From NCBI GenBank assembly GCA_009937025.1, contig JAACDG010000164.1:85-64084 (forward strand): a stretch of DNA of 64,000 bases, read 5' to 3'. This document shows positions 5,222 to 46,226 of the stretch, piece by piece. This DNA comes from Methanobacteriota archaeon. Its GTDB lineage: Archaea; Thermoplasmatota; Poseidoniia; Poseidoniales; Poseidoniaceae. The notes beneath the pieces are model-generated. The model was given only the letters and a program-made list of their open reading frames with translations. It was not told the DNA's origin and did no database searches. The number at the start of each line of letters is the position of its first letter. Within the stretch, counting starts at the first letter, position 1. The position numbers and the translations under genes were made by a program.

Positions 5222-5266
5222 GCAGTTCCCCGTTTAACCTTCATTTGAAGAAGTGGCAAAAGGAGA

Positions 5267-5328
5267 TTTAGGGCGACCTAAACTTCATATACTTCGGGTT
5301 TTAGGGCCCCCTAAACCAGTAGGCCCTA
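5267..5328. promoter_or_regulatory. Two 16-bp palindromes (TTTAGGGCGACCTAAA, TTTAGGGCCCCCTAAA) plus a TAGGGCC/GGCCCTA pair flanking a TATA-like element immediately upstream of phnD
   Basis: Seen directly at 5267-5282, 5299-5314 and 5302-5328. catatac lies between them. The ATG is at 5331. Confidence 0.45.
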
Positions 5329-5330
5329 GC

Positions 5331-17610: not shown

Positions 17611-17680
17611 GAATTGATTGAAAAAGTGCCTCTTCTCATCTAGCCGTTGTGTTTGTATGTGGGTGGCCTTTGGCTAAACC

Positions 17681-22173: not shown

Positions 22174-23322
22174 ATGGTGAACTTCCAACTCGACGAAACG
22201 CAGGAGATGTTAAGGGAACTTGCCCATGAAGTTGCGGTTGAGGAAATTCGGCCAAATGCTGAACATTGGGATACCGAATCGGTTTACCCAAAAGAAGCCA
22301 TACAAGCCGCTCATGAAATGGGCTTGCTCAATCTTCACATTTCAGAAGACTATGGGGGGCCGGGCTTGGGTTCCATGGAAGAAGTTCTCGTCAATGAAGA
22401 ATTGGCTTGGGGAGACCCGGGTTTTGCAACAGCGGCATATGCGACTTCACTTGCATGTGCGCCAATTATCACCGGTGGGACCGAGGAACAAAAGCAAAAG
22501 TGGCTCCGAATGGTTGCAGAAGACGGAGCATTGGCTTCGTATGCCGTAACCGAGCCTGGTGCTGGTTCAGATGTTGCAGCGTGTAAAACAAGTGCTACAC
22601 GTGATGGAGATGATTACATTATCAACGGTTCCAAAATGTGGATTACCGGTGCGGGTTATGCTGACTTCTTCTTTGTTTTAGCAAAAACTGACGTGGATGC
22701 TGGATACAAAGGAATGTCGGGTTTTATCGTTGAGAAAGATGCTGAAGGTTTCTCACTTGGTAAGAAGGAAACCAACATGGGGCAACGTTGTTCTGATACC
22801 CGTTCAATTCAGTTTGATGATGTTCGCGTGTCTGCCGACCAACTTATCGGCGGTTCCGAATCAGGCGGCTGGATGAACGCCATGAAAGCCTTTGACATGA
22901 GCCGGCCCAACATTGCCGCTCATGCAACGGGACTTGCTCGCGCTGCCTATGAACACGCACTCCAATATTCAGGTGAGAGGTCAACCTTTGGCAAGCCTCT
23001 TCATCGCCATCAAGCCATCCAATTCATGTTGGCTGATATGAAAACAAAAATCGAAGCCTCAAGACTGTTGACTTGGAGGTCTGCAGCAGATTCAGATGCA
23101 GGTGTTCAAAACACCGAATCTGCAGCCCATGCTAAACGATTTGCAGCTGATACAGCAATGGAAGTTTCGACTGATGCAGTTCAAGTTTATGGCGGGTACG
23201 GTTATTCTGAAGAGTATCCTGTTGCTCGTCTTATGCGAGCAGCAAAGGTCATGCAAATCTATGAAGGTTCTTCACAAGTTCAGCGAATGATCATTGGAAG
23301 AGAGATTACCAAGGATTTGTAA
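22174..23322 (+). CDS. Acyl-CoA dehydrogenase
   Basis: 382 aa. Conserved ACAD architecture, including YAVTEPGAGSD, GSKMWITG and a C-terminal catalytic Glu region (QIYEGSSQVQR). Confidence 0.9.
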   Translation: MVNFQLDETQEMLRELAHEVAVEEIRPNAEHWDTESVYPKEAIQAAHEMGLLNLHISEDYGGPGLGSMEEVLVNEELAWGDPGFATAAYATSLACAPIITGGTEEQKQKWLRMVAEDGALASYAVTEPGAGSDVAACKTSATRDGDDYIINGSKMWITGAGYADFFFVLAKTDVDAGYKGMSGFIVEKDAEGFSLGKKETNMGQRCSDTRSIQFDDVRVSADQLIGGSESGGWMNAMKAFDMSRPNIAAHATGLARAAYEHALQYSGERSTFGKPLHRHQAIQFMLADMKTKIEASRLLTWRSAADSDAGVQNTESAAHAKRFAADTAMEVSTDAVQVYGGYGYSEEYPVARLMRAAKVMQIYEGSSQVQRMIIGREITKDL

Positions 23323-24135: not shown

Positions 24136-24729
24136 ATGGCCAAACTTTGCCCCGCCGTAATTCTGGCTGCTGGAGCCAGTCAGCGCCTTGGGCAACCGAA
24201 ATCATTGGTTGAGATAGGGAACTCAACATTGGTAGGACTCGCCTATAAAAAATTGATAAAAGCAGGTTGTTCACCTGTTATCATCGTGACGCGCAGTGAA
24301 CTTTCAGTCCCAATAATGCAATCAACTCTCGGCTCGACCGTAATTGTGAATTCCGCTCCTGAAGAGGGAAGGACTGGAAGTATTCAATGCGGCATCATGT
24401 CTCTTGCTGGAGATAAAGGAAGAATGCCCAAACAAGTCATCATCGCTCCCGTAGACCGTCCAGGATGGGCAGTAGAGCATATCAAAACACTTGCCTTGGC
24501 CAAAACAAGTTCTACTCTTTCATCAAACGGTCGCCGAGGCCACCCTTTACTCCTCGACCAAGATGCCATTCAAACGGTTCTTGCAGCACCACCTCAAACA
24601 TCTCTACGTGAGTTGATTTCTTTCGATGAAGTCTACGTTGATGCACCTCTTCTTGGATTGAATATCGATCATCCCGAAGATTTGGAACTGTTGAAACAAC
24701 ATGAAATTGTTTTGATGGAAACAGGCTGA
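24136..24729 (+). CDS. mocA: MobA-like NTP transferase (molybdenum cofactor cytidylyltransferase MocA-like)
   Basis: AVILAAGASQRLGQPKSL nucleotide-binding motif. Adjacent to xdhC. Confidence 0.7.
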   Translation: MAKLCPAVILAAGASQRLGQPKSLVEIGNSTLVGLAYKKLIKAGCSPVIIVTRSELSVPIMQSTLGSTVIVNSAPEEGRTGSIQCGIMSLAGDKGRMPKQVIIAPVDRPGWAVEHIKTLALAKTSSTLSSNGRRGHPLLLDQDAIQTVLAAPPQTSLRELISFDEVYVDAPLLGLNIDHPEDLELLKQHEIVLMETG

Positions 24730-24768
24730 AACTCACAGGGCAAAGGGTATGTGTCACCTCCTTGAGGG

Positions 24769-25641
24769 ATGTACATGACTGCGGCGGTGATGGCTTGGGC
24801 CCTTTCCCGTCTTGCTTTGGGGCAACGTGTTGTTCTTGCCAGCGTTGTTGAAACTGCAGGGAGCGTTCCTGGAAAAGTTGGAGCACGCTTGGCTATGGCT
24901 TCCGATGAACAATGGTCGGGAACGGTTGGAGGCGCTGGTTTGGAAATGAAAGTACTTCAGCGTTGTAGAGAACATCTTTCCACTCAACATCATCCATTTG
25001 GAGAAGTTATACGGTACGGTTTGAACAAAGGGGCGAAGGGCTATCAAGTGACACCGCTTGATTCATTATGCGGCGGTCAAGTTACGCTTGCGATCGAGGT
25101 GATGATTCCGATGCCACATGTATTGTTGATGGGTGGAGGTCATTGCGGTCAAGCGATTGCAAACACATTGGATGCCTTGGGTTGGCACCATTCCGTTCAT
25201 GATACTCGGCCTGAATTTTCTGCTGTCAAAATGTATCCCAGTGCTGAACAACTGTCTTCTGTTTCTGTTTCCGAGTTTCTTCAAACAGAAAGTCTCGAAT
25301 CTCTTCGTCGATTTTCAGATGTATTACTTCTCGGACATGACTGGGCTGAAGACGAAGAACGATTGTTGGGTCTCCTGCATTTATATCGTGAAGGAAAAGC
25401 CATTCCAGATGGACATCAAGGTCCTCGAATTGGTGTGATCGGCAGTCGTTCCAAATGGCAGTCGTTTGAAAAAACATGTCTTGAACAGGGCATTGGACAA
25501 CCAATATTGGATGCTATTGTTTGCCCGATTGGATTGAATATCGGCGCAGAATCACCCGAAGAAATCGCTGTGGCAGTCGTTGCTCAAATCATGGCTTCGT
25601 TCAAAGGAGTCGATGCAGAAGCACCGACTTGGAGAACCTGA
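24769..25641 (+). CDS. xdhC: XdhC/CoxI-family Mo-cofactor insertion accessory protein
   Basis: N-terminal XdhC_CoxI domain (VVLASVVETAGSVPGKVGARLAM) and a C-terminal Rossmann-like domain (VLLMGGGHCGQAIAN). Confidence 0.7.
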   Translation: MYMTAAVMAWALSRLALGQRVVLASVVETAGSVPGKVGARLAMASDEQWSGTVGGAGLEMKVLQRCREHLSTQHHPFGEVIRYGLNKGAKGYQVTPLDSLCGGQVTLAIEVMIPMPHVLLMGGGHCGQAIANTLDALGWHHSVHDTRPEFSAVKMYPSAEQLSSVSVSEFLQTESLESLRRFSDVLLLGHDWAEDEERLLGLLHLYREGKAIPDGHQGPRIGVIGSRSKWQSFEKTCLEQGIGQPILDAIVCPIGLNIGAESPEEIAVAVVAQIMASFKGVDAEAPTWRT

Positions 25642-26187
25642 TTATTCAGGTAAAAAAATCCGTTCTCTAAAAAATCGAAGTTCTTCAATTGATTCAAGAA
25701 TATCGTCCAATGCCAAGTGAGCACCTTTCTTTTCATATCGGCCGGTATCAGGATACCATCTTCGAGCTAATTCTTTGACAGTTGAAACATCGATCATTCG
25801 ATAATGCAGGTATTCAACAAGAAGGGGCATTTCCTTTTCCATGAATTTTTTGTCATTCCATACACTGTTTCCGCACAATGGAGCAGAACCCTGTGGCACC
25901 CATTGTTTGAGAAAGGCCAAAGTTTCGGCTTCTGCTTGTTGACATGAAACACTTGCTGTTCGAACGCGTTCGACCAATCCACTTGCTGTATGATGGGAGG
26001 TGTTCCATTCATCCATTCCTGCTAAGAGTTCTTCAGAAACAGATACAGCAAGATTTGGTCCAGTGGCAAGAATGTTGAGTTCTCCATCAGTGACAACTGT
26101 TGCAATTTCAATGATGGATTCTCTCGTAATATCCAATCCAGTCATTTCAAGGTCAATCCAAACCAAGCGTTCGTTACTTTCACCCAT
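25642..26187 (-). CDS. orn: Oligoribonuclease (DEDDh 3'-5' exonuclease)
   Basis: LVWIDLEMTGLD...IIEIATVVTDGEL matches the Orn exo I motif. 181 aa. Confidence 0.85.
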   Translation of the reverse strand: MGESNERLVWIDLEMTGLDITRESIIEIATVVTDGELNILATGPNLAVSVSEELLAGMDEWNTSHHTASGLVERVRTASVSCQQAEAETLAFLKQWVPQGSAPLCGNSVWNDKKFMEKEMPLLVEYLHYRMIDVSTVKELARRWYPDTGRYEKKGAHLALDDILESIEELRFFRERIFLPE

Positions 26188-26256
26188 GTTTTCGCCAAGA
26201 GGCGGGGGTTTTTCAATTGGGCGTAGGGTTATGAAGTCCTTTTTGGACGGCAGACT

Positions 26257-27636
26257 ATGGCGGATGAGATAGGGGGCGAAGCGATTCCAACTCCTTTGGA
26301 CACCTCTTCCTTGATGGAACCCAAGGCCCTCATCGCAGTAGGTATCCTCACCTTTCTCCTGATTTTTTCATTCTTTGCTCTTGCGTTAACCGGTGATTCA
26401 TCACCGTTGCCAACGACCCAAGAACCAGAGGATAACGATGGTTGGCGGGCCTTTTCGGTCGTTGCTCCAGTTGATACTGGTATCAATGTCTATCACGACC
26501 ATTTCCGTACCAATGAAACCTTTCCATCTTGGCTTTTAGACGAACTTGGCGTAAACAAAATTTGTGAACTGACCTTTAACGGAACTTGGCAGGAACGCTA
26601 TGATGCTGACAAAGAGGCCTGCTGGGATACCTTGATTGCCAGCGATATCGTTTACTTTCCAGGGACAAAAATCATTGGCACTTCACCAGATGGCGACAGT
26701 GAAATTTTGATTTTAGATGACCCCAGTGATGGGCACGGGTCGGCAGTTACGGGGGCTGTTTTGAACGCAAACCCCAACGCAGTCATCTTCTTTGTCGAAG
26801 GATTTAGCACTGAAGCAGTACTTGCTGCAGCCAATCAACCTCTTGTCGACGTCATCACGACATCGTTTGGAGCGCCGGGTTCAGTGCCAATTTCTGGTAT
26901 TGAACGAGGAACTGAAGTTGCTGTTGTGGAACAAGGAAAAATGCACGCCGGTGCTGCCGATAACAGTCCTTCACCCGCCATACAAGATTCAACTGCTGGT
27001 CCGCCTTGGTCGATTGGAATTGCAGGATATGCGGAAGAAGGCGATGACCAAAAAGAAATCATGTCAGGTTCTTATCCAGATATTTCTGCGGATTGGACCC
27101 AATATCTCCCCAACCACGATGATATTGATGGTTACCATGAAACATCCGGAACCTCATTTGCCACACCTCGAACTGCAGGTATTCTTTCCTCGGTTTTGGA
27201 ATCTTTACGTTTTGAATTTAATGACGATGGGGCAGGTGCCTCTCCAGACATGCGTCAAGGGATGTTAGTGAATGGCACAGACTCGGATGGAAATCCTTTC
27301 CTCGTTTCAAATTCAGATGTCCGTGAAGCCCTCAATCGCTCTGCATGGTACCCCGATTTAGGGTGGGACCCAACATCAGGAACAATGCCTATCTCTCCGG
27401 TAGCTCCATGCACACAAACCGGCTGGGGTTTGGTCAACCTTTCCAATATCGAACCGATGATTGCACACCTGAACCAATCGTCTGAACTTACTCAAAGGCC
27501 CGGAGATGTTGTCGCATGTATGAATGCTAATCAAGAAATGCGAGAGGCGTATTGGAATGCCTACCCTTCAACTCCAGATGCATTCAGCGAACTGTATGTT
27601 ACGGGCTCAGAAGGTGTTGAGCGTCGATTGTATTGA
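26257..27636 (+). CDS. Subtilisin-like serine protease (S8) with N-terminal TM anchor
   Basis: Asp DTGINVYHDHF, His DGHGSAVTGAVL, Ser GTSFATPRTAG. N-terminal TM LIAVGILTFLLIFSFFALALTG. Confidence 0.7.
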   Translation: MADEIGGEAIPTPLDTSSLMEPKALIAVGILTFLLIFSFFALALTGDSSPLPTTQEPEDNDGWRAFSVVAPVDTGINVYHDHFRTNETFPSWLLDELGVNKICELTFNGTWQERYDADKEACWDTLIASDIVYFPGTKIIGTSPDGDSEILILDDPSDGHGSAVTGAVLNANPNAVIFFVEGFSTEAVLAAANQPLVDVITTSFGAPGSVPISGIERGTEVAVVEQGKMHAGAADNSPSPAIQDSTAGPPWSIGIAGYAEEGDDQKEIMSGSYPDISADWTQYLPNHDDIDGYHETSGTSFATPRTAGILSSVLESLRFEFNDDGAGASPDMRQGMLVNGTDSDGNPFLVSNSDVREALNRSAWYPDLGWDPTSGTMPISPVAPCTQTGWGLVNLSNIEPMIAHLNQSSELTQRPGDVVACMNANQEMREAYWNAYPSTPDAFSELYVTGSEGVERRLY

Positions 27637-27637
27637 A

Positions 27638-30600
27638 TCAGAGACTGACCCAATCAATAATGATTTGACCGTTTGCATTCAATCCAACAACAGGTTTGAA
27701 ACCGTCATGAGGCGTAATTTCAATCGATTTCAAAATCGCTTCTAACTTACCTGGAGGCAGGCGGATTTCAAACCCTTGTGAGGTTGAAATTGTTTCAGGC
27801 ATTGGGACGAATACTTCCTCGACAACAACTTCTTCGACTTCTTCGGCCTCTTCTTCAACGATTTCAAAAACTTCTTCAACTTCTTCAACTTCTTCGGCCT
27901 GTCCTTTAACGATTTCAGGAAGTTCTTCCCCAGGGGGCAGTTTTTCCACTTCCTTCAAGAGTGAGGCTTGTTGAATAGTTGCTTGAGGAGCCTGTTGAAC
28001 TTCACCTGTTTCATAAATTCCATCATCATCATCCAACCTTTGCATGGTGAGGAATCCCCAACCTAAAGCAATCAAACCGACTCCAACAAATGAAAGTGCT
28101 TGCATTGTTGTGCTGTCAACATCAATACTGAAGGCGACAAAGGAAAGAATTGAGCCGTAGCCTCCAAGAATTCGTCTCCAACGTGCTTCATAATCAGGAG
28201 CATACCCTTGGATACCAATAGCAATGAGAACAACTGTGGTGAGCACCCAAGCCAGAGACCATTGATCAAGTTCACCAAAGGTGAAGAAAATACCAGCAAG
28301 TGCACTCAAGACTCCCGCCATTCCTAATCGGTCAAGGAAGTCAAGGAAGTCATCATCATTGTCCCATTCAAAGAATTCGAACTCATACACTTTGTCGTTT
28401 TGTAGGGAGAGCCAAGAAATACTCAACCCTTCAATCAGAAGGAACAAGCCGATTGGAATGCCAATTGGTATTGAATCGATTTCCAACTGTATGATGAGAT
28501 TCGCCAGTGCAATTGCATGAATTGCTGGCACGAAGAACAATGCATTTGCATAGCCCTTGAGGAGAATATCGCGAGTAAGTAATACTGCTCCAGCCAATGT
28601 TCCTAGTCCAAGTAATGCTTCAAAACTGAGAATAAAGAAGACATAGGTAGTGATGTAGAGTGTGTCGACAATCCCTTCTCTCTTTTCTTGTGTCAATTCC
28701 TTGTCTTGTTCATTTGAAACATATTTGAAAAGAAGGTCTTTACTGTTCATTAAGGTAAACGTCAGAGCTGAACATGCTGTAAGCAAAGCACTCCATGAAA
28801 AGGCCATAGTGAAATCATCGAATATTTCTTCATAGCCCATTCCAATCAAAAGGCTAATCATGAATCCAATATGGAGGGCTACAATGGTCTCGAGTTTCCC
28901 ATTGATCCACGAATTAATGATGAGATAGGCAAACATAATTGCTGGAATCCAACCGACGCTTGAACTTGCTCCAATCACGCCGACAAGCGCCCAACCCCAC
29001 ACTCCAAACCAAGGCAACGGTTCACGTTCACTGTTACTTTGTTGGACATATTTGTTGTCCATAATAAGGACATATATCATTTGCAGTGTGATGAAAATTC
29101 CACCCAACCGGGTAAGAGATAAAAATCCAAATTCCACAAAGTCATAGGTTGAAGGGTCGGTCATTTCAATGAGATATCTCGCAATTCCCGCTGATTCGAT
29201 CCAATGAGAATTGACGATGAAAAAGGCTACCGGTGAAAGCATCAATGGCCAAACATGGCGATGTTTGACACATCGTACTGTGACCAAACCTATCATCGAT
29301 AGAATCAGCAATCCACCTGAAGTATCAAGACAAGCCAAACCTAACAGCCCAAGCATGGCCCAAGCATCAGCATTGACCGAAAGATGGTCATCATCAATTC
29401 CGCGTTTCGTGATGAGGCTGTTGACATAAAGCGGTGCACTTAGAATCATAATATCGAACAGTATAGGAATAGGAGCCCAAGAGGTGTTTTCATACTCCGC
29501 TAAATATTGCATTTGGCTTCGCAGTATATTGAGACTGATACTCAGAGGAAGCGCGATTGTGAACAACACCCACACACCGGCAGAACGAACGACAGAGGAG
29601 ATAACATCCATATTTTTTATTTCAAGAACCAATCCCATTATCGGCACAAGGAGAAGCAGTGCCCATGGGTAAGAAATCAATGATTCAGCACCATCCCAAT
29701 CGAACTCATTGCCCCATGGATTTACCATTGTTATGAGACTGAAACTCATCATGAAAAACGGAAGAAGAAGGGAGATACGGGTTAATTGACTCCAACTGTT
29801 CTTTTCAACCCAATTCTCAGTTTCTCTGGCCTCTCCATTATTTGGAACATTCCAAGAGTTGGTTTCAGCATCATATATTGGTGCACTTACAGCAAAACGT
29901 TTTGTCCAATTGAATAACAGACCCAAATCCAATTCAATTTCCCGAGATGCATAGAGTGCCCAATACCCCAATGCTCCAAGAATAAAGATTTGATAATTGA
30001 AATATTCAGGCAATGGTACTTGTTCAAAAGCCACAGGAACATCGATGCGGTCGAGGATGGTGAGGATAATCATCGAAGTAAAGGCGATGAACGATACAAG
30101 GGTCGCTTGCATTTTCTCCTCCCAAGAACTGTCGATCGTAAGGTTGCTAAACGTGTTTCGTGCAAGATATAGCATATAGCCGATGAAAATCCATGGCATA
30201 AACCAGTCTTCTGCTTGAAGAATAGTTCGAGAGAGAACAAGTGAACCAAGCATAACTAAATGTGTCCATGTCGAAATTTTGTCGTTTTGTCGAGCGAATT
30301 CGGAAATACAAAACAAAGCAATCGGAATAATGACTTGCATGCCATCATATCCGAAAGTCTCAGAAAGAGGCGTATTGTTGATATTAGCAAAAACATCGGT
30401 GAAAAAGAAAGCGAGTGCTAATGCGCTAAAGGTGTAATCAGCAACCCATCGCCGGGTTGCTTTAGCGATAAACAACATGTATGGCACCATCAAGAGTGTG
30501 ATGGCCCAAGGAATGACGCTCCCATCATTTGGTAACATGACCAGGGCCGCAGCCAAGCCAATAGGCATCCATGGCACTCTGCGCTGTTGTACTGCTGGGA

Positions 30601-35511: not shown

Positions 35512-35597
35512 TACGAATCATAACTTGGCAATCCCTCAACCAGTGCATACCCTATGTTGATATGCGGGCTCCACCACGTCGCCTTTGGCGACTGATT

Positions 35598-36200
35598 ATG
35601 GTAGGCAGCGAACACATCAAAATGATACCCGCTCCTGACAAGAATATTTGGTCTGCTGAAGTGAATGGGGCTCCTGTGGAAGTCCTCGTCGCTTCGAATG
35701 CAATTCTTCTTGATGTGCTTCGCGACAAAGTCGGGACGCTTGGCGTAAAACGTGGATGCGACATGGGCACTTGTGGCTGTTGTACGGTCATGGTCGATGG
35801 AGCCCCTCGCCTCTCTTGCCTGTGTTTGGCTGGACAAGTTGAAGGCTCTGAAATTACAACGGTTGAAGGTTTGGCAGACGGTGCTCACCTGGCTCCAATT
35901 CAATCGTGTTTTGCCGAATATGGTGGCTCACAGTGTGGCTTTTGTACACCTGGTTTCTTGATAAGCGCCCAAGCACTATTGAATGAGAACGATACGCCGA
36001 CAGAGCAAGAAATCGCCTGTGCAATCGAAGGGAACCTTTGCCGTTGCACTGGCTATCAACAAATCATCGAATCCATTCAAGGAGCAGCTGCGATACATCG
36101 CGGCGAAGTCGCAGCAGCAGCCCCTGCAAGCGATGCTCATCCTGACCCTCATCCAGATGGACCTGATGAGCCAAATATGCCTCCTGGCCACGCTCGGTGA
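35598..36200 (+). CDS. coxS: Molybdenum hydroxylase small subunit, 2x[2Fe-2S] (CoxS/XdhA-like)
   Basis: CDMGTCGCCTV (plant-type cluster), then CGFCTPG and CRCTGY (second cluster). The start is an internal Met of ORF 35442. Confidence 0.9.
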   Translation: MVGSEHIKMIPAPDKNIWSAEVNGAPVEVLVASNAILLDVLRDKVGTLGVKRGCDMGTCGCCTVMVDGAPRLSCLCLAGQVEGSEITTVEGLADGAHLAPIQSCFAEYGGSQCGFCTPGFLISAQALLNENDTPTEQEIACAIEGNLCRCTGYQQIIESIQGAAAIHRGEVAAAAPASDAHPDPHPDGPDEPNMPPGHAR

Positions 36201-36206
36201 TGTTTC

Positions 36207-38627
36207 ATGTCTGGAGGATACCGTCAACAACCCGGGGGTTCTGGCCCCACGACCCGTAAAGACGGTAAGCGCGTAGCAGGAAAGCAAGCATTCCCTCCAC
36301 CTGGCTCTGGAGGCTCCAAGCCAAAGATGGCCACTCGAGACCTTGATTTTATCCCTGAATCGGTCGGTGGAAAAGAACCACAACCTGCCGGCTCCCACAT
36401 CCACGACCGAGTTCGAACAGGAACCAGTGTCGGAAAAGAAATGCCTTTGGTTGATTCAAATGCTAAAGTGACTGGTCAAGCATGGTATGGAGATGATGTA
36501 CGATTGCCCAATGAAGTGATTGGCAAGATACTTCGTTCCCCTCACCATTATGCCAGAATTAAATCAATTGACACAACACGTGTCGAAGCCCTTCCTGGTG
36601 TGCTGGCAGTTGCCACAGGTGCTGACTCTCCTCACCGTTTTGGTGTCCTTCCTGTGACCAAAGACGAACACGCAATGGCAGTCGAGAAAGTTCGGCATGT
36701 TGGCGATTTAGTGGCATGTGTTGCTGCAATTGATGAATCAACCGCACTTGAGGCACTCAATTTATTCGATATTGAATGGGAAATCCTAGAACCGGTATTC
36801 GACCCGAAAAAGGGACTTGAAGATGCTGATGAACCGATTCATTGGCGAGGAAAGTATCATTTGGCAAAAACCAATGTGCAAAAGCGAGTCTTTCAAGAAT
36901 TTGGCGACCGCTCTTTGGTCGAAAAACCTCATGCTGAGTCCCATGGAAAATGGAAAATGGCAGGCGTCCATCATGGTTTCACTGAACCACATGCTGTTGT
37001 GGCTCACTGGGACCCAAACGGCCGATTACAACTTTACACGCCTCAGCAAGTTCCGCATTATACTCACCGAGCCCTTTCGACAGTTCTCGATGTTCCAATG
37101 CATCAAATCAACGTTATTCGAACATTTGTTGGCGGGGGTTTTGGTGGAAAATCAGATCCGTTCCCACATGAAATGTGTGCAGCGATTTTGTCGCGTAAAT
37201 CCGGACGCCCAGTCCGCATCACCTTCGACCGAGAAGAAGTCTACTGGATTAACCGAGGACGGCATCCAAGCCATATCGAAGTCAAGATGACTGCAGATGA
37301 AGATGCTCGAATTTCTGGTTTTGATATCGATGCACTCATCGATGGAGGCGGTTTTGCATCTTTTGGACACGTCACTTCGTATTACAATGGAGTCTTAGCA
37401 ACTGCACCGTATGAATTGGGTTCATTCCATTATACAGGTGCAAGAGTTTGGACAAACAAACCCGCTTCAGGTGCCATGCGTGGACACGGAGCCGTCAATA
37501 CCCGATGTGCTGTTGAAGTCGGTTTGGATGAAATGGCAGAAACAATGCAAGTTGACCCAATCGATTTGCGTTTAGCGAACCTCCTTCCACCACACAGTCG
37601 AACAATCAGTGGTTTTCGAATTACTTCAAACGGTATGCGTGAAGCTCTGGAAAAGGTACGAACAGGTTCAAATTGGGATGAAAAATTCCGTAAGTTGCCG
37701 CTGGGCAAGGGCATTGGTATCGGTTGTGGCTTCTTCATATCGGGTTCAGGTTTGCCGATTCATTGGGACCCTAACCGATTCCCGCATGCAACCGTCCACA
37801 TGCAAGTTGACATGGACGGTGGTGTTACTGTTCACACTGGAGCAGCCGACATCGGCCAGGGTTCGACTACAGCAGTTGCCCAAGTCGTTTCAGAAGTTCT
37901 CGCCCTTCCAATTGAGATGATTCATGTCCGAAGCCATGAAAGCGACACCTCTCCAGTCGATTTGGGTTCCTATTCCAGCCGAGTCACATTCATGAATGCC
38001 AATGCTGCAATTCGTGCTGCGCTCGAGATACGTGAACAACTGCTCAATGCGGCTTGGGAAATGCTTGGCTATCATCCAAACAATTTAGTTTTGAATGACC
38101 GTAGGATATACTACAAACACGACCCAGCAGTGGGAGTATCATACCTCAAAGCACTACATAAAGCCCAGGAGGACAAGGGTGCATTGATTGCAAGCGGTGC
38201 CTACCGCTCTCCACCAATGGGTGGCGTTCACAAGGGTGCTGCTGCCGGTTTGGCACCAGCGTATTCCTTTTCGGCCTATGTTGCTGAAGTCGACGTCGAT
38301 GTCGAAACTGGAATAATTCGTTGTACCAATGTATGGGCCGCTCACGATTGTGGAAAAGCACTCAATCCATTAGCCGTGAAAGGTCAAATCATTGGTTCTT
38401 GCCATATGGGATTGGGCCAAGTACTTTCGGAACAGATGGTCTATGGTCGAACAGGTCATTTGCAAAACGCCAACCTTCTCGATTACAAAATCCCCTCCGT
38501 CCATGAAATGCCTCATGTTGAACCCATCATCATCGAATCGTGCGACCCAGAAGGGCCATTCGGGGCGAAAGAGGCTGGAGAAGGCCCCTTACTTCCAATT
38601 CTACCTGCTGTTGTCAACGCAGTATAG
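36207..38627 (+). CDS. coxL: Xanthine-dehydrogenase-family molybdopterin-binding large subunit (CoxL-like), terminated by an in-frame TAG about 25 codons before the canonical C-terminus
   Basis: N-terminus ...RSPHHYARIKSIDTTRVEALPGVLAVATG. Overall ~800-aa Mo-binding architecture. No AYRCSFR (form I CODH) loop seen. Ends GEGPLLPILPAVVNAV-TAG; the family consensus ...NA[IV][FY]DA[TI]G.R...LP.TP continues in-frame after the TAG. Confidence 0.85.
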   Translation: MSGGYRQQPGGSGPTTRKDGKRVAGKQAFPPPGSGGSKPKMATRDLDFIPESVGGKEPQPAGSHIHDRVRTGTSVGKEMPLVDSNAKVTGQAWYGDDVRLPNEVIGKILRSPHHYARIKSIDTTRVEALPGVLAVATGADSPHRFGVLPVTKDEHAMAVEKVRHVGDLVACVAAIDESTALEALNLFDIEWEILEPVFDPKKGLEDADEPIHWRGKYHLAKTNVQKRVFQEFGDRSLVEKPHAESHGKWKMAGVHHGFTEPHAVVAHWDPNGRLQLYTPQQVPHYTHRALSTVLDVPMHQINVIRTFVGGGFGGKSDPFPHEMCAAILSRKSGRPVRITFDREEVYWINRGRHPSHIEVKMTADEDARISGFDIDALIDGGGFASFGHVTSYYNGVLATAPYELGSFHYTGARVWTNKPASGAMRGHGAVNTRCAVEVGLDEMAETMQVDPIDLRLANLLPPHSRTISGFRITSNGMREALEKVRTGSNWDEKFRKLPLGKGIGIGCGFFISGSGLPIHWDPNRFPHATVHMQVDMDGGVTVHTGAADIGQGSTTAVAQVVSEVLALPIEMIHVRSHESDTSPVDLGSYSSRVTFMNANAAIRAALEIREQLLNAAWEMLGYHPNNLVLNDRRIYYKHDPAVGVSYLKALHKAQEDKGALIASGAYRSPPMGGVHKGAAAGLAPAYSFSAYVAEVDVDVETGIIRCTNVWAAHDCGKALNPLAVKGQIIGSCHMGLGQVLSEQMVYGRTGHLQNANLLDYKIPSVHEMPHVEPIIIESCDPEGPFGAKEAGEGPLLPILPAVVNAV

Positions 38628-39011
38628 GATGCGATTGGAATCCGTTTGCGAAGCCTCCCTCTTACACCTGATGTGGTTTTCAAAGGTATTGAAAAAGCCC
38701 TCAAGGCTTCAGAATTTGATGATCCAACCGATTTGCCTTCACCAACGCTCTCCTTTAGTTCAATGCAACCAAAATTGGTTGCCCGAGCACAAGAACATAA
38801 AATTCGGGACAAAGCACGTCAACGAACCGAAGATACAAGTCCCTATGTCAATGGAGTTTTGTTTGGGTTTGACCCAACGATTCCATTGGAAGACCAAGTC
38901 GAAGGTTGGCGTACTGCTACTGAACCCGACCCTGAACAACTCGCAGAACTCGGACTTGCAGGCCGTGCTTGGTTGAAGAAAGAACAACGCCAGATGGATG
39001 GTGAGAATTGA
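38628..39011 (+). other. In-frame continuation after the TAG: canonical large-subunit C-terminus (DAIGIRLRSLPLTPDVVFKGIEKAL) plus a ~100-aa unusual extension. Stop TGA overlaps coxM ATG (TGATG)
   Basis: Same reading frame as coxL, since (38628-36207) is divisible by 3. No ATG until 38763. The ORF track calls it only from a TTG at 38646. Ends at 39011, overlapping the coxM start by 1 nt. Confidence 0.6.
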
Positions 39012-39985
39012 TGTTAATGCCACCGTTTACACTTCATAATCCGACGACGGTCGAAGAAGCATGCACTCTTGCAGGTGCATTGCTCGAAAAAGGCGAAACA
39101 TTCGATTGGGTTGCTGGAGGCACAGACCTTCTTCCAAATTACAAATGGCACCTCAATCCAAAACCGCATGTGATTTCACTCGCTCGTATCGAAGGCGTTG
39201 ACACGCTTTCCCTCCATGAGATTGGTTGTATGGCGAGACTTTGTGATCTGACGGTCGAAAATGGCATTCACCCCTTGATTGTCGAAGCGGCAGGAAAAGT
39301 TGCCTCTACCTTGATTCGACGCAACGCAACACTTGGTGGCAATCTTTGTCTCGATACTCGATGTTTCTGGTATAACCAAGGCGAAGATTGGCGCCGCTCT
39401 ATCGACTGGTGCCACAAAGCAGACTGTGGGACTGGAGCTGATTGCCGGGTCATTCCAAATCAAAACACATTATGTGTTGCAACCTACCAAGGAGATATTG
39501 CTCCAACATTGATGGTACTCGATGCCGAGGTCCATCTCATCGGGCCCAATGGATTGCGAGTCATTCCACTTACAGAATTCTATCAACTTGATGGAATGAA
39601 GAAAAACGTCCTTGAAGAAGGCGAGTTTTTACTCAAAGTTACGCTCTCAAAAGAAGCGGCAGGTCGTTCAGGTTCATACCAAAAGTTGCGTGTTCGCGAC
39701 TCATGGGATTTCCCTGAAGCAGGCGTTGCAGCATCTTGGATTCCAGGGGATGTATCTTCCCTTCAAATTGCAACAACAGCAGTTGAATCGATCCCTCGCT
39801 GCCATCCAGAAGAAGTATCGGCTGTACTCGGGGATGGCTGGGACGGAATGAAATCGGTCAAAGCACTTGCAGCAGGCGTTCGAAAGAGCGTTCAACCCGT
39901 GAACAACACTTCATTACCTCCACGCTACCGTAAATCGATGGTACGGGTTTTGACCAAGAGAGCGGTCGAGAAAATGATTGATTGA
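39011..39985 (+). CDS. coxM: Molybdenum hydroxylase FAD-binding subunit (CoxM-like)
   Basis: FDWVAGGTDLLP FAD motif. CO-dehydrogenase flavoprotein fold, 324 aa. Confidence 0.85.
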   Translation: MLMPPFTLHNPTTVEEACTLAGALLEKGETFDWVAGGTDLLPNYKWHLNPKPHVISLARIEGVDTLSLHEIGCMARLCDLTVENGIHPLIVEAAGKVASTLIRRNATLGGNLCLDTRCFWYNQGEDWRRSIDWCHKADCGTGADCRVIPNQNTLCVATYQGDIAPTLMVLDAEVHLIGPNGLRVIPLTEFYQLDGMKKNVLEEGEFLLKVTLSKEAAGRSGSYQKLRVRDSWDFPEAGVAASWIPGDVSSLQIATTAVESIPRCHPEEVSAVLGDGWDGMKSVKALAAGVRKSVQPVNNTSLPPRYRKSMVRVLTKRAVEKMID

Positions 39986-39994
39986 AGTGATACA

Positions 39995-40969
39995 ATGAAA
40001 AGAACTCCACTGGCTTTATTGATGACTGTCCTTTTCAGTCTCTCTGCTTTGAGCAGTATGCCTGCTCATGCCCAAAGCCCGATTGATGGGCCATCATGGA
40101 CTCTAGGGTGGGCGACCGATATGGATTCAACATACCTCATTGAGATGGACATTGATTGGGATGCAGATGGAGAAATCGTTGCATATGTCGAAAATAACCG
40201 AATGACACAACTTGAACTTGATTTGACCTATGAGTTCGACAGTTGGGTTCCGTTTTCATTCAGTGGCCCCGACACGTTTTCAGTTGCTGCCAATGGCAAT
40301 GAAACATTTTCCATCACCTTTTCTTCAATTAATGATGACGATGCTCGAGAATACAGCCCAGATAACACTTCGAAATTGACGATTACGGCAGATGAAAAAG
40401 TTGGAGACACTTCTGCGAGCACTCAAGAACTTGAAGGAGATGTGAGTGTACCACGTATTTTCGATTTACGTCCAGAAGTCACCTTGCCCGACGAATCGTT
40501 GCATGCAGGTTCATGGATTGAACTTTCAGCCCAACTCGTCAACAGCGGGAATGCTCGTGATGCAGTGAAACAAGCGTCTGTGCAATTCCGCAGTTGCCCT
40601 CATTTGACCATGCCAGGTCTGGAAGACCTTGCAAATACTTTGGTCGATACCACCGGTGCTCAAAGTGGAAAAGATACCTTTGTCGCTCTCCGTCTTGAAG
40701 CCTCGGAAAGTCAACCAAACCGCGTCTGCGAAGCTACCTTATCGTTCACTTCAGAAGGCGATGATGCATCCCGTAGCACGACCTTTGAAATTGAAGTCAT
40801 GGCTGTTGAAAATATTGATGACAATCCGCCCCCCTCAAATCCAGATAATCCGGATGATGGAGATAGCCTTTCACAGGAATCCAACACTTTGCCTTGGATT
40901 GGCGGTGTTGAACTTGTTATGGCGTTGAGTTTTGCGGCTCTTGGCAGAAGCATGAAACAAAAGAACTGA
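39995..40969 (+). CDS. Secreted acidic protein with signal peptide and C-terminal TM anchor (hypothetical)
   Basis: Signal MKRTPLALLMTVLFSLSALSSMPAHA. C-terminus TLPWIGGVELVMALSFAALGRSMKQKN. Confidence 0.5.
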   Translation: MKRTPLALLMTVLFSLSALSSMPAHAQSPIDGPSWTLGWATDMDSTYLIEMDIDWDADGEIVAYVENNRMTQLELDLTYEFDSWVPFSFSGPDTFSVAANGNETFSITFSSINDDDAREYSPDNTSKLTITADEKVGDTSASTQELEGDVSVPRIFDLRPEVTLPDESLHAGSWIELSAQLVNSGNARDAVKQASVQFRSCPHLTMPGLEDLANTLVDTTGAQSGKDTFVALRLEASESQPNRVCEATLSFTSEGDDASRSTTFEIEVMAVENIDDNPPPSNPDNPDDGDSLSQESNTLPWIGGVELVMALSFAALGRSMKQKN

Positions 40970-41120
40970 ATAGTGCTTTTTTGATATTTTTCGGGGCATT
41001 TGCCACCTATTTTTGACTTGTATTCGTTTTGTAATAAATTGTTTTCCACCCCATATTAACCTGTGGCTTCAAATCATGCATGAACAAGCATTAAGTGTGG
41101 AGCGAGGTTCCGACGGTTGT

Positions 41121-41158
41121 TTATACTGTTCAAGAGTACCGCAAGCGCACAAGGAGGG
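41121..41158 (+). promoter_or_regulatory. Putative archaeal promoter (TATA-like tttata) plus strong SD (aggaggga) upstream of the MoxR-module first gene
   Basis: AT-rich intergenic 40970-41164. tttatactg lies ~40 nt upstream of the ATG at 41165, and ggaggg lies 7 nt upstream. Confidence 0.35.
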
Positions 41159-41164
41159 AGAAAA

Positions 41165-42745
41165 ATGACAGACACTGAATCAACAAAAATCTCCATCGAA
41201 ACTTGGCTTAAAGTTGGTCTTGTGTCCTCGCTTTTCCTTTCTGTTGTCGTCATCAGTATTGTGAGCTGGGATAAGACCACAGTGCTTTCACCTTACAACA
41301 ATGCAGCAGATGAATATTCTATGCAACAATTGACTGAAATGCGCAATGTAATCGAGTCCGATGATTTCAGTATTGCCAACACCATGTCAACACCGATGTT
41401 GGTCAACGATTGGAACGACCCTCACCGAACCATGCTTATCATTGCTGGACCTGAAAAACCATTTGATGCTGCTGAAGCCTCTGCCCTCCACGACTTTGTT
41501 ACCAAAAAGGGTGGAAAAGTCATTCTTGCAGCAAGTTCGACCAACGCTCAACTTGTCGCCACTGAATTCGGTGTCAAGTATTTCGATGCACCAGTGTATG
41601 ATGACCAGCGATTCTACGAAGTTGAAGACGACTTGGGTGTTCTCCAACCTGCTGATTATCGACGTCTTTGGTCTGCAGCCAGTATCAATCAAAACATCAG
41701 CGAAATGGGTGATGAAAGATTAATTCCTTGTTCTCAAGCCAACATTGCACTCGCTCAAGTCGACAATTGCCGAATGCCTGTTCTTTTCCACCGCCCTACC
41801 GCAATTCAAGTTCTCGATGAACAAACTGAATCAGAACGTGAAATCAGTATTCTTGCAGCAGCATCAACTTCAACACGTGTTGCAAAATTCCCAGACAACA
41901 TCGACAGTGAACTAAACCCAACACTTGGTGAAGGAATGACTGGACTCATCATCCGAATCGATTACCCAGTTAGTGATGTTCTCGATGTCAAACCGAACAA
42001 TGACTACGGCAAAATCGATGTTACGGGTTCCATTGTTTTCGTTTCAGATCACTCGGTTCTCGCCAATCATCTTTGGGATGCTGACTTAGCCGAAGAACAA
42101 GGGTATTTGCAGTGCACCTCTCCAGCCTATGTGGAAAACGGGCACAATTGCTGGGATACTGACCCCGATGGTCTCTCATCTGCTCAAGGCGACACCTCTT
42201 GGAATGGAAACAGCCAATATTTCTCTGCTTTGATTTATGACATGATGGAATTTGATAATCCTGAATTATCAACAACAATCACTCGTTCCCCATCTGAATT
42301 TTATGTTGTCTTTGACGAGAGCCGTCATATTTCGAGTGCTCTTACCTCTCCATTCACAGAGGCTATGGGCGCTATTGTGTTGCTGACCAGTGATGTTGTG
42401 CTCAAGTGGCTTATTATTCTCAATTTGTTTGCTTTGCTTGCAATTGCCATCATGGTTGTTCCTGAAAAAGAAAACTGGCGCCACGTGTTTGACTTGACTC
42501 GATTTAGAGAACGTCCAACAAAATTAGACCCATCTCAATACCAACTTCGTACCCGAGAGGCACTTCTCTCGAAGGTGCGACAGTTCAATGACTTAACGCG
42601 TGATGAATTCATGCGTAAATCCCCTGCGGAGATCATGCAAATGGTCCGTGATCCGCGCTTGGTCGAGCTCATCAGCTCAACCCGTTCCTACTCCAACGAA
42701 GAACTGCGGGACATAATTCCGCAAATACGACGTTGGGGAAATTGA
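41165..42745 (+). CDS. Membrane-anchored (N- and C-terminal TM) extracytoplasmic protein, DUF4350-like, first gene of MoxR module
   Basis: Start moved to the Met after the SD (MTDTESTKIS...). MLIIAGPEKPFDAAEASALHDFVTKKGGKVILAASS resembles the GldG/DUF4350 family. C-terminal TM plus basic tail. Confidence 0.5.
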   Translation: MTDTESTKISIETWLKVGLVSSLFLSVVVISIVSWDKTTVLSPYNNAADEYSMQQLTEMRNVIESDDFSIANTMSTPMLVNDWNDPHRTMLIIAGPEKPFDAAEASALHDFVTKKGGKVILAASSTNAQLVATEFGVKYFDAPVYDDQRFYEVEDDLGVLQPADYRRLWSAASINQNISEMGDERLIPCSQANIALAQVDNCRMPVLFHRPTAIQVLDEQTESEREISILAAASTSTRVAKFPDNIDSELNPTLGEGMTGLIIRIDYPVSDVLDVKPNNDYGKIDVTGSIVFVSDHSVLANHLWDADLAEEQGYLQCTSPAYVENGHNCWDTDPDGLSSAQGDTSWNGNSQYFSALIYDMMEFDNPELSTTITRSPSEFYVVFDESRHISSALTSPFTEAMGAIVLLTSDVVLKWLIILNLFALLAIAIMVVPEKENWRHVFDLTRFRERPTKLDPSQYQLRTREALLSKVRQFNDLTRDEFMRKSPAEIMQMVRDPRLVELISSTRSYSNEELRDIIPQIRRWGN

Positions 42746-42764
42746 TAATTGGAGGAAAATAGAC

Positions 42765-43943
42765 ATGCAACCCCCCGCACCACCAGCAGCCCCGCCCGCG
42801 CCAGCGCCAGCAGCTCCTGTGGCCCCAGCAGCACCTGCAATGCCTGCACCAGCAGCGCCAATGCCTGCGGCACCTATGCCAGCAGCACCAGCGCCTATGC
42901 CAGCAGCACCAGCAGCACCTGCCCCAGCCCCAGCAGCACCAGCAGCACCGGCCGCTCCGGCCCAGCCGAAGCACCAGACCAGCCCAGAAAACAAAGAGAA
43001 ATTGAAGGCCGTCGGCTCGATTGCAAGCGCAATTAGTGCCGAAGTCCAGAAAGTAATTATCGGTAAAGCACACGTTATCGATAATGTTCTGATCAATATT
43101 CTTTCCAATGGTAACCTTCTGTTCGAAGATTACCCAGGTCTGGCAAAGACATTGATGACCAACACCTTTGCAGATGCACTTGGTTGTGATTTCAAGCGTG
43201 TTCAATTTACGCCTGACTTGCTCCCAGCTGATATCACAGGTACCAACATCTATGACGCAAAGAAAGGTGAATTTACGTTCAAACCAGGACCTCTATTCTG
43301 TAACCTTCTTCTTGCTGACGAGATTAACCGTGCTCCTCCAAAGACTCAAGCAGCTTTGCTTGAGGCTATGCAAGAGAAGCAAGTTACCATTGGTACTGTT
43401 ACGCACAAGCTTCCAGCACCGTTCATTGTTATGGCAACTCAAAACCCTGTCGAACAAGAAGGTACTTACCCACTTCCAGAAGCACAACTTGACCGTTTCA
43501 TGTTCAAGATGTCCGTCGGATATCCAGACCGCGCTGATGAAGACGAGATTCTTGCTCGTCGTATCGCCCGTGGAAAGGATGCAGTCGAAGTCGAAGTCAT
43601 CACTCATCCTGAGATGGTGATTAACATGCAACAAGCATGTGAATTCGTTTACGTCGACCCTGCTCTCCGAATGTATATGGTTGAAGTTGTTTCCCGAACC
43701 CGTGAAGATCCACGTGTTTTGGTCGGCGCTTCTCCTCGTGGTTCCCAAGCATTGCTCAAGACCTCCCGTGCTGCAGCAGCACTTCGAGGCCGAGACTTCG
43801 TCACCCCTGATGATATCAAAGCAATCGCTGAACTCGCACTTGCACACCGAATTATTCTCAAGCCTGAGCATCAAATCAAAGGCCTTGAGTCTGGTGAAGT
43901 GATTCAAGCTATTCTACGAGAAGTCCCAGTCCCTACAGTTTGA
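42765..43943 (+). CDS. moxR: MoxR-family AAA+ ATPase with ~75-aa N-terminal Pro/Ala/Met-rich low-complexity extension
   Basis: Walker A variant EDYPGLAKT, Walker B LLADEINRAPPKTQAALLEAMQE, and sensor/arginine-finger regions. N-terminus MQPPAPPAAPPAPAPAAPVAPAAPAMPAPAAPMPAAPMPAAPAPMPAAPAAPAPAPAAPAAPAAPAQP. Confidence 0.9.
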   Translation: MQPPAPPAAPPAPAPAAPVAPAAPAMPAPAAPMPAAPMPAAPAPMPAAPAAPAPAPAAPAAPAAPAQPKHQTSPENKEKLKAVGSIASAISAEVQKVIIGKAHVIDNVLINILSNGNLLFEDYPGLAKTLMTNTFADALGCDFKRVQFTPDLLPADITGTNIYDAKKGEFTFKPGPLFCNLLLADEINRAPPKTQAALLEAMQEKQVTIGTVTHKLPAPFIVMATQNPVEQEGTYPLPEAQLDRFMFKMSVGYPDRADEDEILARRIARGKDAVEVEVITHPEMVINMQQACEFVYVDPALRMYMVEVVSRTREDPRVLVGASPRGSQALLKTSRAAAALRGRDFVTPDDIKAIAELALAHRIILKPEHQIKGLESGEVIQAILREVPVPTV

Positions 43944-43967
43944 TTGTAGTACTGAACTTATTTTGAG

Positions 43968-45290
43968 GTGAGAATGATGTGGAGTCGTAAATCTGCTATG
44001 TTAGGAAGTTTGGCTATTGCCATGTATTTGCTTGGTTTGACCTTGCGAAATTCCCAACTTGTCACGATTGCGGTTGTCATCTTCGTTTTCCTAACTTGGG
44101 CTGCCTTGTTTGGCGGCCATGCTGACGTTGCCGCTACCGGCCGTCGAGCAGACGAGTGGTCTGGAGAAGAAGGTGCAGCACTGAACAGTGTAAGCGCAAT
44201 GCGTAAATTGTCCAGTGCCCGTATTTTTGAAGACGGAGAACTCAACATCACCTTGAGGATGCAAAACCATTCCTCTCTTGCCAAAATACTTGAAGTGCGA
44301 GACCGAGTTCCAGAAGTAATGCGCATCAAAGATGGTGCGAATTACATTTTGATGGAATTAGGTCCGCGCCGTGAAACATTCATCGAATACACTGTTGAAT
44401 GTCCACTTCGAGGTTTCTATAGTGTTGGTCCTGTGGCTGTCAGGATTCAAGACCCATTCGGATTATTCCACAAGGAAAAAGAATTGCATGTCTACAATGA
44501 TTTCCTTGTGTTCCCGAAAATGGAAGACCTCAAAGAGACGTTCGTCAAATCCCGTGTTCCGAAAATTTTCACTGGTGCGGTCAACATTCGTCAACCTGGT
44601 CCAGGTTCAGAATTTTATTCCCTTCGTGAGTATTTCGAAGGCGATTCATTCCGAGCCATTAACTGGTCTGCGTATGCTCGCTCTGGGAAGTTGATGGTCA
44701 ACGAGCGTGAACGTGATGCAGTTTCTGACATCATTATCATCGTTGACTCACGTTCTGTTGCAGAAACAGGTCCAGTTTCTCGTAATGCATTGGTCTATTC
44801 GACCCGTGCAGCGGCATCCTTGGCAAAATATTTCCTTGGTCGCCGAGACTCCGTCGGTATCATCGTTTACGGTGATGAAGTCGTTAGTGTTGACCGAGAT
44901 ACAGGGAAGAAGCAACTCTATGTCATCTTAACCAAACTTGCTGGTGCTGTTGCAAGAGGGAACATCCCACTTCAAGTGGTTGTCAACCGTATTTTGCCGC
45001 ACATCAACAAGGGTAGTCCGATTATATTCTTGTCCAATCTTGAAGATGATCCAACAATTGTCAACGCTCTGCGTGATTTCCGTGCTCGAAACTTCGATGT
45101 TACGGTTCTCACCCCCTCGTCGCTTGAGTTTGAATTCGATGCACGTCGCATTGACCGAACCGGCTACGAAGTCATGAAGACCGAGCGAGATGTTCTCATC
45201 AGCGAACTTCGTGGACTTGGTGTCAATATTATGGATTGGGAGCCAGATATGCTGCTCTCAACAGCACTTGCAGGCGCAAGAGGATTCTGA
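43968..45290 (+). CDS. DUF58-domain protein (vWA-like, MoxR partner)
   Basis: RQPGPGSEFYSLREYFEGDSFRAINWSAYARSGKLMVNERE is the DUF58 signature. Two N-terminal TM helices. Confidence 0.8.
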   Translation: MRMMWSRKSAMLGSLAIAMYLLGLTLRNSQLVTIAVVIFVFLTWAALFGGHADVAATGRRADEWSGEEGAALNSVSAMRKLSSARIFEDGELNITLRMQNHSSLAKILEVRDRVPEVMRIKDGANYILMELGPRRETFIEYTVECPLRGFYSVGPVAVRIQDPFGLFHKEKELHVYNDFLVFPKMEDLKETFVKSRVPKIFTGAVNIRQPGPGSEFYSLREYFEGDSFRAINWSAYARSGKLMVNERERDAVSDIIIIVDSRSVAETGPVSRNALVYSTRAAASLAKYFLGRRDSVGIIVYGDEVVSVDRDTGKKQLYVILTKLAGAVARGNIPLQVVVNRILPHINKGSPIIFLSNLEDDPTIVNALRDFRARNFDVTVLTPSSLEFEFDARRIDRTGYEVMKTERDVLISELRGLGVNIMDWEPDMLLSTALAGARGF

Positions 45291-45299
45291 GGTGAGAAA

Positions 45300-46226
45300 A
45301 TGACTGTATCCCGACCATCCAGCGACACTGCCCACTTGTATGATGGAAAGACTGTTCGTTCAGCAGCACCATCTCGAAAGAAGATTGCAGGTCAAATTGG
45401 CTCTGGAACTGAAATTCCAAAAGATGCGATTCCTCAAGTTGAAATTCCTTCCTTTATCGAAAGTCTTCTTGGAGGGCCTTTGGTCCCAAAGACGAAATTC
45501 TTGCCACCGGCAAAGATGGTCCAAAACCTTCAACTCGGTGTTTATGGTATTCTTGTGGCCTTGGCTTTGATGACCTACATGATTTCACCTGCTGAAGGCA
45601 CTCTTTGGTACATGATTACGGGTAGTTTAGGAATCGCAACGATTCTACAATTGGTGCTTATTGCAGGAGCAACTGGAACTGGCTTTTGGGGAACCTTCCA
45701 ACGTGATGGGCGCTTCACACTTGCCAGCAATTTGATGTTTATTCTCGCTATCCTGCGCTTTGCTTCCTCAAAGGTTACTCTTTCGAGCGACCTCTTTGGT
45801 CTTCAAGACAAGCCGTTTTTACTTTCAGCACTCGTTGTTATCTATTCGGTACTTTTGATTATGTATTTCGAACTGACCAATGGTGTGCTTCGTTATTCGA
45901 TGCTTGACACAAGTATTCGTACCAATGAAGTGTATGTCATGAACCCTCAGAAGATCGTCGGCAAATACCACCGATCTCTACTCATTAATCCAATCATCGC
46001 CACCCTCTTGGCAACCATTGTTCTCTCTGCAAATACAATCCTTCCATTCTTTGTAGGTATTCTTTCGAAAGACACCGCTCTTAGAATGGAAGAATCAGTT
46101 GAACTGATTTCGGTCTATGGTGTAGCGCTCGGAACGTTCTTTGTGTTCTGTGTGGTTGGTGGATTGTTTGCTTTGAACCTTCCAACGCATTTGCAAAGTT
46201 TCCGTGAGAAGCGTGCTGAGGATTGA
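45300..46226 (+). CDS. Polytopic membrane protein, fourth gene of MoxR module (hypothetical)
   Basis: 308 aa with about 6 TM helices. 9-nt gap after the DUF58 gene. Confidence 0.5.
   Translation: MTVSRPSSDTAHLYDGKTVRSAAPSRKKIAGQIGSGTEIPKDAIPQVEIPSFIESLLGGPLVPKTKFLPPAKMVQNLQLGVYGILVALALMTYMISPAEGTLWYMITGSLGIATILQLVLIAGATGTGFWGTFQRDGRFTLASNLMFILAILRFASSKVTLSSDLFGLQDKPFLLSALVVIYSVLLIMYFELTNGVLRYSMLDTSIRTNEVYVMNPQKIVGKYHRSLLINPIIATLLATIVLSANTILPFFVGILSKDTALRMEESVELISVYGVALGTFFVFCVVGGLFALNLPTHLQSFREKRAED

Follow-up and report, generated by a model that had tools for sequence, protein, structure and literature searches.

The closest solved structure to the enzyme encoded at this locus is 1rm6, the 4-hydroxybenzoyl-CoA reductase HcrCAB of Thauera aromatica (PDB 1rm6/1sb3), whose genes are ordered gamma ([2Fe-2S]), alpha (Mo), and beta (FAD). 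Aerobic CO dehydrogenase (CoxL/CoxM/CoxS) is a member of the same superfamily, with a matching three-subunit architecture and the same Pfam domains. Because the large-subunit gene of our locus contains an in-frame TAG, two other kinds of precedent are relevant. In the pyrrolysine decoding of Methanosarcinales and Methanomassiliicoccales, orthologues share the UAG, and the pylTSBCD genes are present in the genome. Also, draft genomes (MAGs or single cells) can contain consensus errors or “pseudogenes” with internal stops.

We analyzed a stretch of 64,000 nucleotides (the window), in which the three subunit genes are in the same order as in HcrCAB (Table 1). A sequence-only reading of this DNA had reported a TAG within the large subunit of a Mo-hydroxylase, and the TAG is indeed there: the window reads GTT GTC AAC GCA GTA TAG GAT GCG ATT GGA, just downstream of a segment encoding AKEAGEG. 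The ORF that is stopped by the TAG (36207-38627) encodes 806 amino acids. Past the TAG, this frame stays open (DAIGIRLRSLPLTPDVVFKGIEKAL...) through 127 sense codons, until a TGA at 39009-39011. This TGA shares one base with the start codon of the FAD subunit (ATG at 39011-39013), which gives a TGATG overlap. The earlier description of the open frame and of the overlap was thus accurate except for its figure of 128 further codons, which counts the stop. Beyond the TAG, the gene encodes the final ~27 residues of the conserved fold, followed by a lineage-specific C-terminal extension of about 100 amino acids.

Table 1. Coordinates of the features discussed in the text (positions within the window)
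Feature	Position	Strand	Details
[2Fe-2S] small (gamma) subunit gene	35562..36200	+	Fer2_2, Fer2_3, Fer2 (Pfam); scaffold gene call L004 6552-7190
Large (alpha) subunit, first 806 codons, molybdopterin-binding	36207..38624	+	Ald_Xan_dh_C, MoCoBD_1, MoCoBD_2 (Pfam)
In-frame TAG	38625..38627	+	TAC (Tyr) to TAG, a single C>G at 38627, private to the record
Large-subunit remainder, 127 codons plus TGA	38628..39011	+	Intact coding sequence
FAD-binding (beta) subunit gene	39011..39985	+	FAD_binding_5, CO_deh_flav_C (Pfam)
Second window-private nonsense change	17675	+	CAA>TAA at codon 7 of an E1_dh/transketolase-type gene (17657-20284)

The large subunit belongs to the xanthine-oxidase / molybdenum-hydroxylase family (E = 2e-24 for PF01315, 5e-62 for PF02738, and 1e-71 for PF20256). 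The best NCBIfam models for the gamma, alpha, and beta subunits are TIGR03193, TIGR03194, and TIGR03195, which describe the corresponding subunits of 4-hydroxybenzoyl-CoA reductase. The scores are 177.2 bits for gamma (cut-off 257.8), 785.5 bits for alpha (cut-off 994.6), and 236.2 bits for beta (cut-off 404.6). As all three subunits fall below the equivalog cut-offs, we do not assign a substrate from this resemblance. The labels coxL and coxM in the sequence-only reading were loose, given that the subunits score best on the 4-hydroxybenzoyl-CoA reductase models. We rejected an identity as CoxL because the large subunit is far below the cut-offs of both CoxL models (282 bits against 991 for TIGR02416, and 314 against 950 for NF040766). 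Also, the large subunit has the motif GAMRGHG where, we presume, the AYXCSFR active-site loop of form I CoxL would lie. Judging from its sequence, the enzyme resembles 4-hydroxybenzoyl-CoA reductase and not CoxL.

The structural comparison points the same way. The C-terminal region of the large subunit matches 1rm6_A with E = 1e-36, and the alignment of the beta subunit to 1rm6_B runs over the full length (E = 1e-49). This alignment includes the Cys-rich insertion known from HcrB, with GGNLCLDTRCFWYNQ...WCHKADCGTGADCRVIPNQNTLCVATY of the beta subunit opposite the matching segment of 1rm6_B. In HcrB, this insertion binds a [4Fe-4S] cluster. Unlike HcrA (769 amino acids), the alpha subunits of Poseidoniales have an N-terminal extension of about 75 amino acids and a C-terminal extension of about 100 amino acids.

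To see what relatives encode at the position of the TAG, as the sequence-only reading had proposed, we compared orthologues and found TAC or TAT in every one of them. At the protein level, the best matches are full-length proteins of 934-937 amino acids that are 96-97% identical to the window's product; their sources are named as Candidatus Poseidoniaceae archaea, which is to say marine group II. Among the best 120 homologues, the aligned residue is tyrosine in 117, histidine in two, and phenylalanine in one, and none of the 120 chains ends there. At the nucleotide level, we examined 80 Poseidoniales-type loci from species-representative genomes: 53 have TAC, 27 have TAT, and none has a stop codon at this position. 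In 72 of the 80, exactly 127 codons follow the tyrosine codon. In the closest solved relative, Tyr741 of the alpha subunit of 4-hydroxybenzoyl-CoA reductase (1rm6_A) aligns to the TAG, and that chain ends 28 residues later. The other family members in our alignments have glutamate (nicotinate dehydrogenase), valine (a CoxL, 8uem_A), or aspartate (7dqx_A) at this position. So, the position was correctly described as a conserved aromatic one for this clade, but not for the family as a whole.

The codon is also TAC in the most similar sequences available. A look-up of the window's FAD-subunit protein, which is unaltered, found the identical protein on four other contigs (L004-L007), whose identity to the window is 99.65-99.96%. 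Two of these contigs are from ENA assemblies (of different samples), and the other two are from Logan assemblies. SRR6441338, ERR14025382, and ERR14025319 are among the runs with Logan assemblies that yielded near-identical contigs. L004 and L007 are identical at all covered positions, and scaffold_74 and the Logan run SRR6441338 perhaps share a sample, which means that L004 and L007 are possibly not independent of each other. Besides this pair, TAC was found in three separate sources: L005 (ERR14025382), L006 (sample SAMN08290290), and L003, a JGI metagenome contig that matches 9.9 kb of the window at 96.3% identity. (L003 was the sole match when we scanned the JGI metagenomes for the exact pattern AACGCAGTATANGATGCGATTGGAATC; the same pattern had no match in the species-representative genomes.) Finally, exact look-ups of the 806-amino-acid product, of a 766-amino-acid product from an alternative start, and of the 121-amino-acid ORF downstream of the TAG found none of them on record, which implies that no other assembly gave a product that ends or restarts at the TAG.

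We considered whether the UAG might be decoded, either by programmed or leaky read-through with a near-cognate tRNA or as pyrrolysine. This would yield a 934-amino-acid subunit and would keep the TGATG coupling, and the sequence-only reading had offered read-through as one of its options. The frame does stay open for the 127 codons, with the overlap with the next start codon preserved. Also, TAG is the rarest stop codon in the window, although it is in normal use: the 47 complete genes end with TGA in 32 cases, TAA in 11, and TAG in four. But those genes also show that TAG ends at least four ordinary genes of the window. One of these is the ribB (DHBP-synthase) gene at 10919-11632, whose TAG at 11630-11632 had been correctly cited as a genuine stop. 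Also, none of the other sequences that we examined has the TAG, not even the contigs with 99.65-99.96% identity to the window, and because it is not conserved, there is no recoding site that selection has kept. The open frame downstream is fully explained if the change is recent. The window's second private nonsense codon is a TAA, which decoding of UAG cannot explain. We found no stable RNA structure 3' of the TAG (the predicted fold of 38615-38740 has -26.1 kcal/mol, as compared to a mean of -26.4 for shuffled sequences; z = 0.10). There is no tRNA-Pyl in the 64-kb window, whose sole tRNA is Ser(GCT). The literature search gave no link between Poseidoniales and pyrrolysine, with the Poseidoniales passages that it covered being concerned with membrane lipids. 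The likeness to known pyrrolysine decoding is limited to the in-frame UAG in an otherwise intact archaeal gene; unlike in those systems, the UAG is missing from all orthologues, and TAG serves as a normal stop codon. Overall, programmed read-through or pyrrolysine is effectively excluded, and we consider any decoding of this UAG to be extremely improbable.

A variant of this idea is that the TAG is real, that termination at UAG-G is leaky, and that a near-cognate tRNA-Tyr restores the original residue, so that both the enzyme and the coupling to the FAD subunit would survive. If true, an uncultured marine archaeon would be a natural example of nonsense suppression that preserves function. We give this scenario hardly any credence.

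If the gene were a decaying pseudogene, then the segment beyond the TAG should show relaxed selection or further lesions, and it shows neither. As compared to L003, the gene has 62 synonymous and five non-synonymous differences upstream of the TAG, and five synonymous and no non-synonymous differences downstream. As compared to L001, which is 82% identical to the window at the nucleotide level (so that synonymous sites are near saturation), the part upstream of the TAG has an omega of 0.011 and the part downstream has one of 0.012. There are no frameshifts in the large-subunit gene in the comparison with the scaffold. We therefore rejected decay. The absence of decay downstream implies that the lesion is either extremely young or not real. 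Either of these would also account for the intact frame and the TGATG overlap, which the sequence-only reading had taken as a hint that translation continues past the TAG.

A lesion that is young but real would be a very recent nonsense mutation in the strain or cell that was sequenced, and given what else we found in the window, this genome would have to carry a high load of new mutations, as in a mutator lineage. The gene would then be a new pseudogene whose product is cut after residue 806, with the loss of both the end of the conserved fold and the C-terminal extension. The TAG base is present in the record, and the lack of decay is as expected for a very young lesion.

We compared the window to scaffold_74 of the ENA assembly SONG20-1_SAMN08290289. 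This scaffold is 84.9 kb, and the pieces that we used (L013, L004, and L008) cover 55.9 kb of the window; positions 1-3494 and 24422-29010 of the window are outside of this comparison. There were 36 substitutions and no indels in the 55.9 kb, or about six private changes per 10 kb. According to the gene calls of the scaffold, 24 of these are missense, two are nonsense, nine are synonymous, and one is intergenic. The gamma-subunit gene, for example, has one private missense change (GAC>GAG, D>E) at 36005. The other nonsense change, at 17675, turns MWVAFGQTMSQ in the scaffold into MWVAFG, a stop, and TMSQ in the window, and seven other contigs have the C at this site.

The split of the private changes fits what would be expected from random substitutions. 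When we simulated random substitutions in the same genes with the observed spectrum, 69% were missense, 2% were nonsense, and 29% were synonymous; with a uniform spectrum, these were 72.5%, 4%, and 23%. Natural variation in this population is of a very different kind, as seen when scaffold_74 is compared to other near-identical contigs (40 synonymous, two missense, and no nonsense differences) and to relatives at 97.7% identity (250 synonymous and 68 missense differences). Similarly, the ratio of non-synonymous to synonymous changes is 26:9 for the private changes versus 5:67 for the large-subunit gene between the window and L003 (P = 1e-12, Fisher's exact test). The TAG thus belongs to a class of private changes with no sign of having been filtered by selection. 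New mutations that selection has yet to filter would likewise fall at random into non-synonymous and synonymous ones, so the observed ratio is also compatible with a real mutation.

Exact look-ups of the window's proteins at 7290-8186, 24769-25641, and 39995-40969 found no match. Two of the three look-ups failed because the genes carry window-private missense changes. The gene for the remaining protein is in a stretch with no reference sequence.

We could compare 32 of the 36 sites with other contigs, and at 30 of the 32, the base in the window is unique. The other contigs side with the window at just two sites (7759 and 14091). From this asymmetry (30 versus 2), we infer that the branch leading to the window is about 15 times longer than the branch leading to its sister sequence. 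The private changes are also clustered: of the 35 gaps between successive changes, 10 are 50 bp or less, as compared to 1.1 expected (P = 9e-8). Examples of clusters are 7729/7740/7759, 22199/22203/22231/22242, and 52281-52284. The TAG is isolated and lies outside of these clusters (the nearest private changes are at 36005 and 40734). By a hand tally, 26 of the 36 changes are from A/T to G/C.

Several of these features are difficult to reconcile with a real mutation. The window has ~6e-4 private changes per base, which are mostly non-synonymous and include two nonsense codons in 56 kb; extrapolating from the window, such a genome would carry from several hundred to over 1,000 damaging changes. 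A clock-like split between two natural strains would not leave the sister branch almost unchanged, as it is here. Tight clusters of changes within 30-50 bp are unusual for spontaneous mutation. Also, at the covered sites, the alleles of the window are not present in any other sample. For these reasons, we view a real and recent nonsense mutation as unlikely, but still more plausible than the decoding of the UAG.

Overall, our comparisons show that the TAG is found in this record alone, that the private changes as a group are random-like by statistical criteria, and that all relatives have an intact gene. The TAG is most likely a consensus error, with its technical origin being our interpretation of these patterns. 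We judge that the private changes are most likely consensus errors because they show no sign of filtering by selection, and because the sister sequence has almost no such changes, this is also the simplest reading. The change from TAC to TAG would then be one C>G substitution among ~36 single-base errors that arose during sequencing or assembly, for example from an assembly with low coverage. The organism itself, a marine group II archaeon (Poseidoniaceae), would have an ordinary and intact large subunit of 934 codons with tyrosine at this site, and no recoding mechanism would be in play at the TAG. Of the options that the sequence-only reading listed, error is the one favored by the ~36 unfiltered private changes and by the second nonsense codon, while read-through fares poorly given that the TAG is not conserved and that no RNA structure was found.

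As to how such errors might arise, we rejected two explanations. Errors in long reads at homopolymers do not fit, as there are no indels in 55.9 kb. Mixing of natural strains in a co-assembly does not fit either, because no contig from another strain has the window's alleles and because the private changes divide into non-synonymous and synonymous ones as random changes would. The locus is like the consensus errors and internal-stop “pseudogenes” of draft MAGs or single-cell genomes in that the stop is isolated, the gene is intact in relatives, and the private changes are unfiltered; it differs from them in having substitutions only.

Some points count against an error. The TAG is not part of any of the clusters. 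The differences are exclusively substitutions and are biased from AT to GC, which fits no single error process that we could verify. Also, the same pattern would be expected from a real lineage or single cell with hypermutation.

For those who work with this record, the lesson is about data quality: it contains about six unfiltered private substitutions per 10 kb, and two of these are premature stops. Since these changes are unfiltered, single-base oddities in the window (such as in-frame stops, unusual residues at conserved positions, or altered start codons) need to be checked against near-identical public contigs. As for the biology, the TAG has little import: the gene encodes an ordinary subunit, strongly conserved among marine group II archaea, of a molybdenum hydroxylase that resembles 4-hydroxybenzoyl-CoA reductase.

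Substitutions private to the window, scored against the near-identical 84.9-kb scaffold_74, were A/T>G/C in 26 of 36 cases. Some of them fall in tight clusters (see table), where the changes are missense for the most part. At these clustered sites the window base was found in no other contig, except at 7759, where it is common to the 97% relatives. The in-frame TAG in the large-subunit gene of the molybdenum hydroxylase is not the only premature stop private to the window: a second one lies at 17675, where CAA has become TAA in codon 7 of a gene of the E1_dh/transketolase type (875 aa). As a result, the ORF in the window seems to begin at ATG 17681 rather than at 17657.

The phosphonate-binding/transferrin-type gene encodes 408 aa in both the window and scaffold_74, versus 704–730 aa, with the domain doubled, in five of the ~97% relatives (L014–L017 and L019). 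In the region flanking this gene, identity to these relatives falls to ~92% and indels are present. Judging from the length difference and these flanks, the gene is a strain-level structural variant.

Coordinates of features in the window
Feature	Coordinates	Remark
Phosphonate-binding/transferrin-type gene	in 4425-6479	
Private-substitution cluster	7729-7759	
Private-substitution cluster	9103/9145	
E1_dh/transketolase-type gene	17657-20284	+ strand
Private-substitution cluster	18969/18988	
Private-substitution cluster	22199-22242	
Large subunit, N-terminal extension	36207-36430	
Large subunit, C-terminal extension	38700-39008	
FAD subunit	39011-39985	
324-aa gene	in 39995-46226	without family match
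DUF4350 gene	in 39995-46226	
392-aa gene	in 39995-46226	no recorded family
DUF58 gene	in 39995-46226	
308-aa gene	in 39995-46226	no recorded family
Private-substitution cluster	52256-52284	
Private-substitution cluster	54987/55035	

The block of five genes at 39995-46226 (see table), immediately downstream of the hydroxylase operon, keeps its order in L001, an 82%-identical relative. A Poseidoniaceae-type large-subunit gene (87% amino-acid identity) was also found in contigs L071 (CAXQWT010000088.1) and L087 (CALDQY010000030.1), whose MAGs are labelled Salipiger bermudensis and Rhodobiaceae bacterium; this placement probably reflects binning contamination of those records.

The large subunit of Poseidoniales has a Gly/Pro/Lys-rich N-terminal extension of ~75 aa and a C-terminal extension of ~100 aa (including ...SPYVNGVLFGFDP...EGWR...LAELGLAGRAWLKKEQR), both of which are absent from the solved alpha chain of 4-hydroxybenzoyl-CoA reductase (769 aa). 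No Pfam family matches the C-terminal extension. Its length is unchanged in 72 of 80 species, and it evolves under strong purifying selection (omega ~0.012).

All three hydroxylase subunits score under the equivalog cut-offs for HcrCAB (4-hydroxybenzoyl-CoA reductase). In the FAD subunit, residues ~110–160 preserve HcrB's Cys-rich insertion, with the pattern C..C......C...C....C.......C. The motif suggests that the enzyme, like 4-hydroxybenzoyl-CoA reductase, has an additional Fe-S cluster, and in this predicted cluster the subunit differs from CoxM, the FAD subunit of CO dehydrogenase.
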